Shown here one piece after another: positions 10-33,300 of a DNA stretch of 38,879 nt. Within the stretch, counting starts at the first letter, position 1; every line of letters starts with the position of its first letter. The position numbers and the translations under genes were made by a program. Origin of the DNA: Nitrospirota bacterium (GTDB taxonomy: Bacteria > Nitrospirota > Thermodesulfovibrionia > UBA6902); NCBI GenBank assembly GCA_016222905.1, contig JACRPZ010000058.1, positions 1 to 38,879 of the forward strand, given 5' to 3'. The notes below the pieces were generated by a model. The model did not search any database. It had not been told where the DNA came from and saw nothing but the letters and a program-made list of their open reading frames with translations.

Positions 10-210
10 GTGCACCTCCTCTTAAATTTTAGGGGATATTAACACTATCACCCTGTTTTAAACATTAGGGGTTAGCTTTTTGCTATCGCCCTCAGGAGGT
101 GCACTCTTTTTCATGTTATCATTCCCGCTTGTCGGGAATCTTCTTATTCCCCCTTAATAAAGGGGATAGGGGGTTGTTAAAGGAAAGATTCCCGACAAGC
201 GGGAATGATA
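10..210. repeat. Structured non-coding element. An 11-bp perfect inverted repeat (gtgcacctcct at 10-20, aggaggtgcac at 94-104) is followed by two mutually inverted 24-bp hairpin units (119-142 and 185-208), each an attcccg/cgggaat stem. An imperfect cccctta/taagggg-type palindrome lies between them.
   Basis: Read directly from the sequence. The unit at 119-142 is the exact reverse complement of the unit at 185-208 (aagattcccgacaagcgggaatga). No ORF with an RBS lies here; the minus-strand ORF 213-605 is an antisense artefact. Confidence 0.5.
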
Positions 211-315
211 TATTAATATTGAGTTTTAAGACAGTTCCTGCGTCCTCTTAAAAGCAAACCGGGACAGGATTGCTTTTCCCATTTATGTAGTGTATTGTAA
301 TACAGGAGGTGTTTT

Positions 316-534
316 ATGAGAACCGTATTGTCCGTCAGCCTGCCATCAAACATGTCGGAGGAGCTTGAGAGGTTTGCCAAAAATACCGGACGCAACAAGA
401 GCGACATTGTGAAGGAATCCCTTAGCCTTTTTCTTTGGGAAATGAAGCTCAAGTCAGTGCAGAAAAAGCTCGGTCCAAAAGCAAAGAAGCTCGGCATAGT
501 AAGCGAAGAGGATGTTTTTAAGGCGATATCATGA
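316..534 (+). CDS. Ribbon-helix-helix (CopG/VapB-like) antitoxin, 72 aa
   Basis: An aggaggtg RBS lies 7 nt upstream of the ATG. The protein is small. Its N-terminal stretch LSVSLPSNMSEELERFAKNTGRNKSDIVKESL fits an RHH beta-strand plus helix. The stop overlaps the start of the downstream PIN gene (ATGA). Confidence 0.75.
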   Translation: MRTVLSVSLPSNMSEELERFAKNTGRNKSDIVKESLSLFLWEMKLKSVQKKLGPKAKKLGIVSEEDVFKAIS

Positions 535-932
535 CCGCCGTATTCGATACGAATGTGTACATAGCGGCGATCATCACCGAGGGGATCTGTTCTAAAATTT
601 TGCACAGGGCGCGCGCAAGAGAATTTTCCCTTGCATCATGCCCTTTCATTATGGCAGAGATCAGATTCGTTCTCTCAAAGAAATTTCACCTTTCACATGA
701 TGAAATAGCTTCAGCAATAGAGCCCATCAGTGAAGCCATTGATAAGATCATCGAGCATAACCTCAAAATTGACAGTATATGCCGGGATGCGGATGATGAC
801 AACGTTCTCGCCTGTGCTGTGGCGACAAAGGCGGATTATCTTGTGACAGGGGATGATGACTTGCTAGAGATAAAGAGCTATCAGGACATTAAGATCATGA
901 CTCCAAGAGACTTCGAAGCGTTGTTTGTATAA
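531..932 (+). CDS. PIN-domain ribonuclease toxin (VapC-like), 133 aa
   Basis: An N-terminal AVFDTNVYIAA motif and an acidic cluster DADDDNVLACAVATKADYLVTGDDD are typical of TIGR00305-type PIN toxins. The gene is translationally coupled to the RHH gene. Confidence 0.8.
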   Translation: MTAVFDTNVYIAAIITEGICSKILHRARAREFSLASCPFIMAEIRFVLSKKFHLSHDEIASAIEPISEAIDKIIEHNLKIDSICRDADDDNVLACAVATKADYLVTGDDDLLEIKSYQDIKIMTPRDFEALFV

Positions 933-1075
933 CATTTGATCTTCCCTTCCGATCTATTCTGAATATTGCAATTGCAGTATCTTTAGCAAGCTCGTACGTC
1001 AAGCCATTTCTTATAGGCCACAGATTTCCATTGAATATCCTTAAATCCTGCCTGTACAATACAATAACTCGTTAA

Positions 1076-1519
1076 ATGCTAAATAAAGACAATAATAACA
1101 ACCAATATATCGAAGGCAATTCGCGGGTACAGCTTGCCCTGTTTGCCTTCCTATGTATTTGCAGTCTCATCGGCTTCTTATTAAAGCAAATCGCAGAAGA
1201 GAAAATTGAGCAACTCAATACGGTAACAAATACGACAGCGGCGCTGAGTGAATTGAATAATATTTTTGTCAATTTCTTAATTATACCGCTATCCATTTTT
1301 TGTACTATTCAGGGAATCTATTTATTGCGTCTCGGCATGAAAACGATACGTGCAGGTGTTCATCCGCCGCCCGGCGTTAGAATGCCATTCAGAGCAAAAA
1401 TTCAAACTGGGGTAGCGGCAAAGCTATCAGCCATAGGCTATTTCTTTGCTGCAGTCTGCGGCTTTATTGTTATTGCCCTACTTCTGAAAATGAGGCATGA
1501 AATATTCAGGCACATTTAA
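1076..1519 (+). CDS. Hypothetical small membrane protein with two predicted TM segments, 147 aa
   Basis: The longest ORF in this interval. It has hydrophobic stretches LALFAFLCICSLIGFLL and YFFAAVCGFIVIALLL and an Asn-rich N-terminus. There is no convincing RBS and the start is uncertain. Confidence 0.3.
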   Translation: MLNKDNNNNQYIEGNSRVQLALFAFLCICSLIGFLLKQIAEEKIEQLNTVTNTTAALSELNNIFVNFLIIPLSIFCTIQGIYLLRLGMKTIRAGVHPPPGVRMPFRAKIQTGVAAKLSAIGYFFAAVCGFIVIALLLKMRHEIFRHI

Positions 1520-1683
1520 CAACAGGTTCTACAGCCGACCGAAATTTATGCTGGTTTTGCATCAAGCAGGTTGCCCCTACGGGTCAGCCGAAACGTTATC
1601 GCGGATACATAAACACAAGAGTGATAGCCATTAAAAATTAAAGATGAGTTATAAACTTAAAGGAAACTAATAAAGGAGGTTAT

Positions 1684-31137: not shown

Positions 31138-31386
31138 TTGCAGATAGCATTAAACTTTCTACAGAGTCAGGAGTATGCGAACAGGAATACGAGCAACAGC
31201 GAATATATAGAAGACCTGTATAACGGTATACTGAGAAGGGGCGCGGAGCTTGCCGGTTACCAATCCTGGCTCACAGCGCTAAACGGAGGCATATATACAA
31301 GACAGACCATGCTTACAGCGTTTGTGAACTCAACGGAGTTTCAGGTCAGGGTTCAGCAGGTCATTGACGCGGGGTGCTTATTTTAG
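31138..31386 (+). CDS. DUF4214-like module (82 codons) with a TTG start. It may be an out-of-frame C-terminal domain of the preceding gene.
   Basis: The stretch EYIEDLYNGILRRGAELAGYQSWLTALNGGIYTRQTMLTAFVNSTEF matches the DUF4214 consensus (LY..xLxRxxDxxGxxxWxxxLxxGxxxRxxxxxxFxxSxEF). The first codon at 31138 is TTG. The frame is open from 31099, overlapping the end of the upstream gene in another frame. Confidence 0.45.
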   Translation: MQIALNFLQSQEYANRNTSNSEYIEDLYNGILRRGAELAGYQSWLTALNGGIYTRQTMLTAFVNSTEFQVRVQQVIDAGCLF

Positions 31387-31475
31387 TAGACTCACCGGAG
31401 TTTTGGTGGTCAAAGTTGCAGGGGCGCAAACTGAACATAACTAAGCCTGTTACTTCATAAACGTAAATAAGAAAA

Positions 31476-31505
31476 GCCGGGGCATAATCTTGCTCCGGCT
31501 TTTCT
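31476..31505. terminator. Rho-independent terminator hairpin (gccggggcataatcttgctccggc) with flanking A and T runs. This is copy 2 of the about 50-bp repeated element. It sits immediately 3' of proS.
   Basis: It differs from 28044-28073 by only 3 loop/stem substitutions. The similarity continues into ...ttttNttattgcaaRaactaa on the 3' side, overlapping the proS stop codon. Confidence 0.6.
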
Positions 31506-31516
31506 TATTGCAAGAA

Positions 31517-33202
31517 CTAATTAACCAGCAACTCCCTGATCTTTTCTGCAACATCGGGAGGGGCGATCTTTTCCGTCTCTTTTGTTCTTCTTGATTTAAG
31601 CTCTACAAAACCCTCTTGCAGTGTCTTCTTTCCGATTATTACCTGCCATGGAATCCCTATCAGATCGGCATCCTTGAATTTTATTCCAGGCCTTGCGTCC
31701 CTGTCATCAAGGAGCGCTTCAATCCCGCTCTCTTTGAGAGCCGTATATAATATTTCCGCTGTACTTTTCACATCCGCATCATCAATATTGAGCGGGATAA
31801 CTTCAACATCATACGGGGCGATGCTCTGCGGCCAGATGATGCCGTCCTTGTCGTGATTCTGCTCAACAGCCGCTGCCGCGATGCGCGCAGGGCCGATGCC
31901 GTAGCTTCCCATTATTATAGGAACCTCTTTCCCGTTTTCATCCAGATAAACAGCATTGAGCGGTTCAGAGTATTTGGTGCCCAGTTTGAATATGTTCCCT
32001 ATCTCGATCATTTTCTCAACCTGTATCTCTGTTCCGCATTTATGACACCTGTCGCCTTCTTTTGCCGTATGAATGTCATGCCACTCCGCATCAAAATGGA
32101 TGTGAGGGTTTATCCCCTTTGTATGGAAACCCTCTTTGTTAGCGCCTGCAATATAGACACCTTCTTTAAGGGATATATCAGCTATCTTTTTTAATGTATT
32201 GCCATAAGGGCCGATGAAACCAGCCTCAACTCCGAGAATCTCCTTTATCTCCGCCTTTTCAGCAGCCCTGAAATCCCCAACTAATTTGTGCAATTTCTTT
32301 TCATGAAGCTCCTGGTCGCCCCTGACCAGCGCAAGGAACGGGCCGTCTGTGCCGATAAGTAGAAGGCTCTTAATGAAAAACTGCGGGTTTATCTTCAGGA
32401 AACCTGAGACCTCTGTAACCGTCCTCTTTTGAGGCGTTGAGATGTCCTCCAGCTTCCACTCTTCTTCAATATGATGTGCATGAGGCGTAGAGCGCGCAAG
32501 TTCTGTGTTTGCGGAATATCCGCATTCACGGCAGAGCACCACAGTGTCTTCTCCCACAGGGCTCGGCGCCATGAATTCATGCGCGCCAGCGCCTCCCATC
32601 ATGCCCGGGTCGCTCTCAACCTGATAAAATTTCAGCCCGCACCTGTTGAATATATTGTGGTATGCCCTTGCATGTTTTTGATAATTCTCCTCAAGCCCCT
32701 TCTCGTCCCTGTCAAAGCTGTAGCTGTCCTTCATTGTAAATTCGCGTGTTCTCAATATTCCGCTCTTGGGCCTCTCCTCATCCCTGAACTTTGACTGTAT
32801 CTGATACCATATCTGCGGCAGGTTCCTGTATGAACTTATCTCCATAGAGGCAAGCCACGTTACTATTTCTTCATGGGTCATACCAAGACACATCTCCCTT
32901 TTGCCTCTGTCCTTCAGCCTGAACATCTCATCCCCTATAGCAGACCATCTGCCGGTCTTCTGCCATATATCGGCCGGATGCAGCGCTGGCATCGTTATCT
33001 CCTGAGCTCCGATAGCGTCCATCTCCTCTCTGATAATCTTATTTATCCGCTGCATCACCTTTTGGGCAAGCGGCAGATAAATATAGAGGCCTGATGCAAG
33101 CTGTCTCACATAGCCCGCGCGCAGCATCAGCACATGGCTAACAGCCTCCGCCTCAGCAGGGGCTTCACGTAAAGTCGGTATGAATATCTCAGAAAATCTC
33201 AT
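31517..33202 (-). CDS. proS: Prolyl-tRNA synthetase, 561 aa
   Basis: The N-terminus MRFSEIFIPTLREAPAEAEAVSHVLMLRAGYVRQLASGLYIYLPL is typical of bacterial ProRS. Class II motifs and the anticodon-binding domain are present. Confidence 0.95.
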   Translation of the reverse strand: MRFSEIFIPTLREAPAEAEAVSHVLMLRAGYVRQLASGLYIYLPLAQKVMQRINKIIREEMDAIGAQEITMPALHPADIWQKTGRWSAIGDEMFRLKDRGKREMCLGMTHEEIVTWLASMEISSYRNLPQIWYQIQSKFRDEERPKSGILRTREFTMKDSYSFDRDEKGLEENYQKHARAYHNIFNRCGLKFYQVESDPGMMGGAGAHEFMAPSPVGEDTVVLCRECGYSANTELARSTPHAHHIEEEWKLEDISTPQKRTVTEVSGFLKINPQFFIKSLLLIGTDGPFLALVRGDQELHEKKLHKLVGDFRAAEKAEIKEILGVEAGFIGPYGNTLKKIADISLKEGVYIAGANKEGFHTKGINPHIHFDAEWHDIHTAKEGDRCHKCGTEIQVEKMIEIGNIFKLGTKYSEPLNAVYLDENGKEVPIIMGSYGIGPARIAAAAVEQNHDKDGIIWPQSIAPYDVEVIPLNIDDADVKSTAEILYTALKESGIEALLDDRDARPGIKFKDADLIGIPWQVIIGKKTLQEGFVELKSRRTKETEKIAPPDVAEKIRELLVN

Positions 33203-33280
33203 ATAAACCTTTCATTCTAAAAACGGCAATTATGTCCGCAGATTACACAGATGGTTGATGAGAAACTACTTTTGCCGTCA

Positions 33281-33300
33281 TTCCCGCGCAGGCGGGAATC
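33281..33300. repeat. GGGAAT-stem hairpin attcccgc-gcag-gcgggaat in the proS upstream region
   Basis: A perfect 8-bp stem with a 4-nt loop. It belongs to the same family as 121-139, 188-206 and 20685-20728. Confidence 0.5.

Follow-up and report, generated by a model that had tools for sequence, protein, structure and literature searches.

Paired intergenic hairpins of a Nitrospirota genome are best explained as units of the dRS3/NTS/SRM repeat family

Three intergenic regions of a Nitrospirota genome contain hairpins with a common stem, ATTCCCG/CGGGAAT, which raises the question of what kind of repeat they are and what might act on them. We analyzed a 38.9-kb stretch of this genome (contig JACRPZ010000058.1, hereafter "the window"), to which all genome-side searches were confined. 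A preliminary description of the window had placed these hairpins at three loci, here E1, E2, and E3, next to a RHH-PIN gene pair, secA and a tRNA-Gly gene, and proS, respectively. These neighbors are indeed the genes named, and every copy in the window lies between genes. As set out below, the hairpins are best explained, from their sequence and context, as members of the dRS3/NTS/SRM family of repeats, a family tied to a GIY-YIG nuclease of single-stranded DNA.

A specific shared stem, rather than GC-rich hairpins in general, had been proposed as the common feature of the three loci, and the counts agree: ATTCCCG-N3..33-CGGGAAT occurs four times in the window versus 0.02 expected, and none of 100 shuffles reached four, which rules out a chance origin of the paired hairpins. 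Enrichment of the lone heptamer, on which the repeat hypothesis had also been made to hinge, is only mild in the window (9 copies vs. 5.0 expected, with 7 of 100 shuffles reaching 9). The density of four strict units in 38.9 kb compares with 0.5 per 100 kb in a control set of 581 kb of contigs picked solely for encoding SecA.

Each of the three loci is an oriented pair of units with "+ then -" polarity, for a total of six units (Table 1). These units share a frame in which GTCAT is followed by a 7-9-bp stem starting with ATTCC, a loop, the complementary stem, and ATC. Left units read (C/T)GTCATTCCCG...CGGGAATC(CAG) and lead into the spacer, and right units are inverted, reading (CTG)GAT(T/A)CC...GG(A/T)ATGAC(A), also given as (CTG)GATTCC..GGAATGAC. 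At E1, the reverse complementarity reported for 119-142 and 185-208 is perfect over 117-142/185-210, i.e., two arms of 26 nt each with 42 nt between (an A-A doublet), and each arm forms the hairpin originally described, with 7-bp ATTCCCG/CGGGAAT stems and 5-nt loops (ATTCCCG-CTTGT-CGGGAAT or its complement). The split copy with a T-run, reported near 20685-20728, was located at 20686-20727, where an 8-bp stem (ATTCCCGT/ACGGGAAT) encloses a 26-nt loop and is followed by CCAG and TTTTTT. The compact hairpin of E3 also exists, its true position being 33280-33299, shifted left by one base from that first given (33281-33300). Absent from the preliminary description were the partner units at E2 and E3. 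In the E2 right unit (20755-20782, CTGGATACCCGCTTTTGCGGGTATGACA), the stem remains intact because T>A and A>T changes compensate each other, and the E3 right unit (core 33319-33347, CTGGATTCCGGGTCAAGCACTGAATGACA) directly adjoins the T-tail of a terminator-like hairpin (33377-33354, minus strand) that belongs to the gene upstream.

We trained a covariance model on 40 distinct units, all taken from genomes other than that of the window, and it identified exactly five oriented units in the window, with scores of 26-33 bits: E1 left (30.6 bits, E 9e-6), E1 right (32.7 bits, E 3e-6), E2 right (29.4 bits), E3 left (28.4 bits), and E3 right (26.1 bits, E 1e-4). The next match, at 13 bits, is a palindromic core read on the wrong strand, and the sixth unit, the long-loop E2 left, was seen by pattern search only. 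For positions 119-208, where covariance or structure prediction had been suggested, the model matched both E1 units and structure prediction folded E1 into a long hairpin (z -9 to -13; -9.7 as DNA). Folding is weaker for E2 (z -3.6) and without significance for E3.

Such predicted folds could also belong to hairpins that work mainly in RNA, by terminating or attenuating transcription or by stabilizing mRNA, and the T-rich CTTCTT tail after the E1 units, which a simple terminator scan flags, as well as the six T after E2 left, would fit this explanation. However, no transcript should end at E1 or E2, which are flanked by divergently transcribed genes, E3 lies just beyond a separate canonical terminator-like hairpin, and the strand-specific GTCAT...ATC frame is unnecessary for termination. 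None of the units corresponds to an intrinsic terminator, in which a GC-rich hairpin and a T-run would close a transcription unit at its 3' end. An Rfam scan of the window returned tRNAs only, with no match for the hairpins, and SsnA, the nuclease of the family introduced below, does not bind RNA (PMC11893778). We therefore regard an RNA-level role as distinctly unlikely, even if the units may possibly have a side effect on transcription.

The unit frame instead recalls a family described in Neisseria and beyond. The dRS3 element is defined as ATTCCC-N8-GGGAAT (Chenal et al. 2025, PMC11893778), and about half of the Neisseria dRS3 copies belong to a longer oriented form, NTS (CGTCATTCCCGCGMAVGCGGGAATCYRG), for which at most one mismatch is accepted (PMC11893778). 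Across phyla, Ssn-related motifs (SRMs) follow the degenerate pattern HGTCWYN(0-2)YYVSBRHN(0-5)WNVSBRGN(0-2)RNCYNB and bracket ssnA, the gene for a 94-aa single-domain GIY-YIG protein (cd10448) (PMC11893778). SsnA binds the motif solely as a single-stranded DNA hairpin, and of one strand alone, with its cut falling a few nucleotides upstream; in N. meningitidis, the C after the palindrome is the most critical base for SsnA binding, and altering the stem sequence while keeping the hairpin abolishes SsnA activity (PMC11893778).

In the window, the exact dRS3 sequence is found at 33280-33299 alone, as the E1 units have N7 and E2 right has ATACCC. Likewise, 33276-33303 matches NTS with one mismatch, while the other units need four or more. 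The SRM pattern is strictly fitted by 20755-20782 (minus strand) and fails at the last base alone for 33276-33303, but excludes the E1 units (ATC for GTC, 7-bp stem, and 5-nt loop) along with E1-type units elsewhere; a further match within a coding region, at 4408-4438, is probably due to chance. The C after the palindrome is present in six of six window units. dRS3 has been known since 2000, and NTS and SRM, together with Ssn, since 2025; in Neisseria, the outcome of Ssn activity is the restriction of incoming single-stranded DNA.

To place the E1 units, which depart most from these motifs, in a broader context, we scanned 8-kb stretches of a species-representative genome collection for the exact E1 22-mer (TCATTCCCGCTTGTCGGGAATC), and found it in at least 120 stretches from ~70 assemblies (counted by accession prefixes). 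Among the matches listed, 114 of 120 stretches are from Nitrospirota, Nitrospirae, or Thermodesulfovibrionia metagenome-assembled genomes (MAGs). The window proteins share 79-83% identity with their counterparts in a Thermodesulfovibrionia MAG (L175; L-numbers such as L001, L107, or L232 label genomic loci fetched for comparison) and 74% with those in a "Nitrospiraceae" MAG (L234), so that a Nitrospirota genome of the class Thermodesulfovibrionia is the most likely source of the window. The statistics on E1-type units given hereafter refer to these listed matches, which amount to 827 kb of Nitrospirota loci. Just 13-14 of 124 copies are inside long open reading frames (ORFs), although ORFs of at least 150-200 aa fill 69-77% of the bases. 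In 122 of 124 copies, the base before TCATT is G; the A seen there in the E1 left unit, and on both arms of E1, is rare.

Partner units were then anchored by ATGAC alone, without using pairing. Of the 104 anchored partners, 87 form perfect 7-bp hairpins, with another 2 showing 1-2 mismatches and 15 being out of register. In the alignment of all 70 distinct partners, two-sided changes affected 45 cells versus 11 in shuffles, for a covariation score of 0.283 versus 0.118 that none of 500 shuffles reached and that no slid register approached. Adjacent pairs are almost exclusively oriented "+-" (104 of 110, with 5 "-+" and 1 "++"), mostly with gaps of 15-32 nt, and the 104 doublets comprise 89 A-other, 15 other-other, and no A-A combinations. 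Since stems covary and the units of a pair always differ, the conserved object is the individual unit hairpin and not a long inverted repeat, and E1, with its two identical arms, is an atypical copy. The outer flanks of doublets show no general complementarity (15.4 matches vs. 15.0 in the control), and a few subfamilies sit nested in larger palindromes.

These same data bear on the suggestion that the hairpins are operators of a dimeric regulator, for instance the RHH antitoxin encoded next to E1. Palindromic cores, and the location of two of the three loci in promoter regions, are what such operators would show. However, stems vary through compensatory change in at least 10 variants (ATTCTGG, ATTCCGG, ATTGCGG, ATTCCGA, ATGCCGG, ATGCTGG, and others), the flanks are oriented and non-palindromic (the asymmetric GTCAT...ATC frame), neighbor genes are unrelated across ~70 assemblies, and 106 nt lie between the end of E1 and the start codon of the RHH gene. 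A different palindrome, TGTATT-GT-AATACA (291-304), lies directly upstream of the RHH ribosome-binding site (RBS) and is a likelier autoregulatory operator than E1. We thus abandon this part of the preliminary description, the operator explanation being barely tenable.

The spacer of E1 contains a module of a second repeat family, without which it would be of the usual short TTCTT/AAAGGAAAG type. This second family has the form C5-6 TT(T), loop, (A)AA G5-6, and a further G-run (e.g., ATTCCCCCTTAATAAAGGGGATAGGGGGTTGTT), with 65 matches in the 827 kb of Nitrospirota loci and 2 spurious ones in the 581-kb control. Sites include window positions 146-178 as well as L132, L149, L159, L176, L193, and L199, and the module is repeatedly found within doublet spacers, including those of L132, L149, and L193.

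A link to a nuclease came from the genes surrounding the units in other genomes. Genes between more distant unit pairs in the Nitrospirota loci are ordinary housekeeping genes with no recurrent cargo, and the sole gene tightly bracketed by units among the fetched loci encodes a small GIY-YIG protein (PF01541) of 96-103 aa, plus one frameshifted copy. Thus, unit(+) and unit(-) surround the GIY-YIG gene 333 nt apart in L107 and, with the frameshifted gene, 327 nt apart in L232, where an E1-type unit lies 283 nt away. In L326-328, the order is GTCATTCCCGTGGAAACGGGAATCCA, GIY-YIG gene, TGGATTCCCGCCTTCGCGGGAATGACGG, with 329 nt between units, and the left stem of L326 (ATTCCCGT/ACGGGAAT) is that of the window E2 left unit. 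Units abut the gene in L008 and L047, and one lies downstream of it in L330. Lastly, L329, a 4-kb contig of Thermodesulfovibrionales MAG JBAQLU01, has 15 units around its GIY-YIG gene, including close relatives of E2 right (GTCATACCTGCGAAAGCAGGTATCCAG) and an intact version of E3 right (GTCATTCCGTGCTTGACACGGAATCCAG), and the same MAG carries an E1-type unit (L184). Units with a 26-nt loop also occur beside GIY-YIG genes, at L329 1454-1497 and 1825-1868 and at L232 6129-6172; these loops have a common sequence (CCCCnnTTTCnnGAGGGTAAnCTCCA), and that of E2 left (20694-20719) has the same length and an unrelated sequence. Among named proteins, those most similar to the L232 protein are from Nitrospirae, Nitrospirota, and Thermodesulfovibrionales MAGs; homologs of the L107 protein were found in Sphingomonadales only. 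The "+-" polarity of the doublets is therefore that of the gene cassette minus its ~330-nt cargo.

The nuclease gene also separates these units from repetitive extragenic palindromic (REP) sequences, whose doublets (REPINs/BIMEs) are spread by RAYT transposases of the IS200/IS605 Y1 family. Inverted doublets resemble REPINs, the absence of target duplications is as predicted for Y1 transposition (no suffix/prefix match of at least 2 nt in any of 83 doublets), and Y1_Tnp genes (PF01797) occur in 3 of 120 listed Nitrospirota loci (L139, L240, and L241), 190-1300 nt from a doublet. Yet three such genes per 827 kb is not clearly above chance, the window has none, and tight bracketing by family units is seen for the GIY-YIG gene only. 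Instead of being flanked by family units, these three Y1_Tnp genes are directly bracketed by a different inverted repeat (TAGGGACA-N-CCAT), with ATTCCCG-type units on one side only and further away. Moreover, the two units differ in 104 of 104 doublets, whereas REPIN arms are near-identical. Spread by a RAYT is hence improbable, and of the "REP/MITE-like" family first proposed, what stands is a dispersed, intergenic, oriented hairpin repeat present in many genomes, which matches neither the classical REP/RAYT system nor a miniature inverted-repeat transposable element (MITE) with terminal repeats and target duplications. The Y1_Tnp genes (~222 aa; L139 3596-4267, L240 126-797, L241 107-772), with their own inverted repeat (A)TAGGGACA-N4-6-CC(C)AT, represent a separate REP-like system in the same genomes.

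Coming back to the GIY-YIG link, we consider it likely that the window doublets consist of dRS3/NTS/SRM units, are gene-less miniatures of the unit-ssn-unit cassette, and are acted on by Ssn; the reading as gene-less miniatures relies on the "+ then -" polarity shared with the units that bracket ssn elsewhere. Under this scenario, when DNA becomes single-stranded during replication, repair, or DNA uptake, each unit would fold on its own strand, and, by analogy with SsnA, an Ssn-family nuclease encoded elsewhere in the genome would bind the hairpin and the following C, then nick a few bases 5' of GTCAT. For a "+-" doublet, this would place one cut outside each end, on opposite strands, a geometry that would suit excision or processing of the whole pair, and gene-less pairs would be non-autonomous derivatives of the cassette. 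Both the action of Ssn on these copies and the spreading of doublets as non-autonomous elements are inferred.

Several observations weigh against this scenario. No GIY-YIG gene or remnant was found across the 38.9-kb window (tblastn, E<=1), and among the fetched loci no GIY-YIG gene was directly flanked by E1-type units, of which the one in L232 comes nearest. With their 7-bp stem and CTTGT loop, E1-type units lie outside the published SRM pattern, and E1 itself has A for G within the three bases most important for cleavage. The many stem variants, combined with the sensitivity of SsnA to stem sequence, would also require co-varying or tolerant enzymes. As to mobility, no filled-versus-empty site pair was found. 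A search for empty orthologous sites turned up none, the secA-anchored metagenome relatives being at most 70% identical (top JGI match to the window SecA, 70%) with a different synteny; L175 has the Ino1 gene in common with the window but lacks the proS junction, and look-ups of the exact CobA-like, Ino1, and SecA protein sequences gave no record.

In the course of this search, a 98-aa ORF (28347-28643, minus strand) was considered as a GIY-YIG candidate and rejected, as it had weak, sub-threshold Pfam matches only. In the secA comparison, an independent doublet was seen in control contig L251, where it precedes secA at 2700-2860 (GTCATTCCTGCGAAAGCAGGAATCCAG ... GGATTCCCGC-9 nt-GCGGGAATGACA); the SecA encoded there is 65% identical to that of the window, and closer SecA relatives (68-70% identity) have no doublet upstream of secA.

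Units could alternatively be passive targets of recombination or integration, e.g., by IS110/Piv-type recombinases, with no dedicated nuclease partner here. dRS3 is a known recombinase target of Neisseria filamentous phages (PMC11893778), and the motif is found in at least 120 IMG/VR contigs. However, no recombinase adjoins the three loci, and this explanation, which is compatible with Ssn-processed units, covers the use and not the origin or upkeep of the units. As a stand-alone account, it appears highly unlikely.

A bolder and rather doubtful extension of the Ssn scenario is that the unit-ssn-unit cassette is mobile and the tight "+-" doublets are its MITE-like, non-autonomous form, in which case Ssn would be the nuclease of an unrecognized class of GIY-YIG-driven single-strand DNA transposons. 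Cassette polarity, the lack of target duplications, pairs whose units always differ, a Nitrospirota subfamily outside the published motif, and a spacer that takes up the second repeat family would all fit this possibility.

Table 1 Repeat units and neighboring features in the window
Feature	Position	Strand	Description
E1 left unit	116..144	+	TTATCATTCCCG-CTTGT-CGGGAATCTTCT; 7-bp stem 121-127/133-139, 5-nt loop
Module in E1 spacer	146..178	.	Second repeat family: ATTCCCCCTTAATAAAGGGGATAGGGGGTTGTT
E1 right unit	183..211	-	Exact reverse complement of E1 left
E2 left unit, long-loop type	20682..20731	+	CGTCATTCCCGT-[26-nt loop]-ACGGGAATCCAG
E2 right unit	20754..20783	-	TGTCATACCCGC-AAAA-GCGGGTATCCAG; stem ATACCCGC/GCGGGTAT
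E3 left unit	33275..33304	+	CGTCATTCCCGCGCAGGCGGGAATCTAA; dRS3 and one-mismatch NTS
E3 right unit, decayed	33318..33348	-	TTGTCATTCAGTGCTTGACCCGGAATCCAGA; two broken pairs
RHH (PF01402) and PIN (PF13470) genes	316-932		
SecA	17821-20505	-	
tRNA-Gly	20826-20900		
ProS	31517-33202	-	

Further features were observed at or near these elements. Independent Logan assemblies of SRR12113394, SRR12113397, and SRR12113407 break inside the elements (L001-L003, L331): three contigs begin at window position 179, where the nested module meets the E1 right arm, and one begins exactly where the E3 left palindrome ends (33299). These breaks could stem from repeats or population heterogeneity. Around E1, inverted 11-nt copies of an RBS-like sequence (AGGAGGTGCAC) are found at 10-21 and 95-105; the minus-strand copy serves a gene running off the left end, and the plus-strand copy precedes a 14-codon mini-ORF (MLSFPLVGNLLIPP, 113-157) that reads through E1 left. 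Two near-identical (91%) terminator-like hairpins, AAAAGCCGGrGCATmATCTTGCTCCGGCTTTT, lie at 28040-28074, after a PPIase gene, and at 31469-31503, between a DUF4214 gene and proS, and may form another small repeat family.

Elsewhere in the window, positions 9108-10445 encode a 445-aa protein with an endonuclease/exonuclease/phosphatase domain and a ComEA-like HHH_3 domain, possibly an extracellular or DNA-uptake-related nuclease, and thus noteworthy given that Neisseria transformation is modulated by Ssn. Three 501-nt tandem repeats at 14582-15650 correspond to GAF domains of a 708-aa PAS-GAF protein, and the 5' regions of two small signal-peptide ORFs (28968-29049 and 29427-29508) are 85% identical, including the RBS.

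Taken together, these results add a Nitrospirota lineage to the hosts of the Ssn/SRM system and indicate that a subfamily found in dozens of species-level MAGs escapes the published degenerate motif. Doublet geometry, the pairing of unlike units, and stem covariation are hints suggesting that the functional object is each unit hairpin rather than the long inverted repeat, and that gene-less pairs derive from the nuclease cassette. For annotation, the units explain why spurious small ORFs and contig breaks recur in such MAGs.

Compared to known systems, these elements are like REP/BIME/REPIN sequences and their RAYTs in being short intergenic palindromes in inverted pairs without target duplications, thought to be handled as single-stranded hairpins, but their partner gene encodes a GIY-YIG nuclease instead of a Y1 (HUH) transposase, and, unlike the near-identical arms of REPINs, their paired units differ systematically. 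Like MITEs such as the Correia elements, they are small, gene-less, and dispersed, with inverted ends, yet they lack target-site duplications (0/83), and their ends are self-folding hairpins instead of plain terminal inverted repeats. As in the NIMEs of Neisseria, dRS3-type units surround other short repeat modules, E1 holding one of the second family, although this inner module belongs to a Nitrospirota C5/G5 hairpin family and not to the Neisseria RS elements. The closest likeness is with dRS3/NTS and SRM/SsnA (PMC11893778), which share the frame CGTCATTCCCGC-loop-GCGGGAATCCAG and, in related MAGs, oriented intergenic units bracketing a single-domain GIY-YIG gene of ~95 aa. They differ in the host, here a Nitrospirota MAG that is probably of the Thermodesulfovibrionia, in the main local variant, whose 7-bp stem and CTTGT/ACAAG loop fail the SRM pattern, in the near-exclusive occurrence of tight "+-" pairs of two different units, and in the lack of ssn in the window. 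The E1-type sequence was not found in the searchable literature; the kind of element is itself known, and what is new here is the lineage of the host, a subfamily that the published motif does not cover, and strict "+-" doublets of unlike units.

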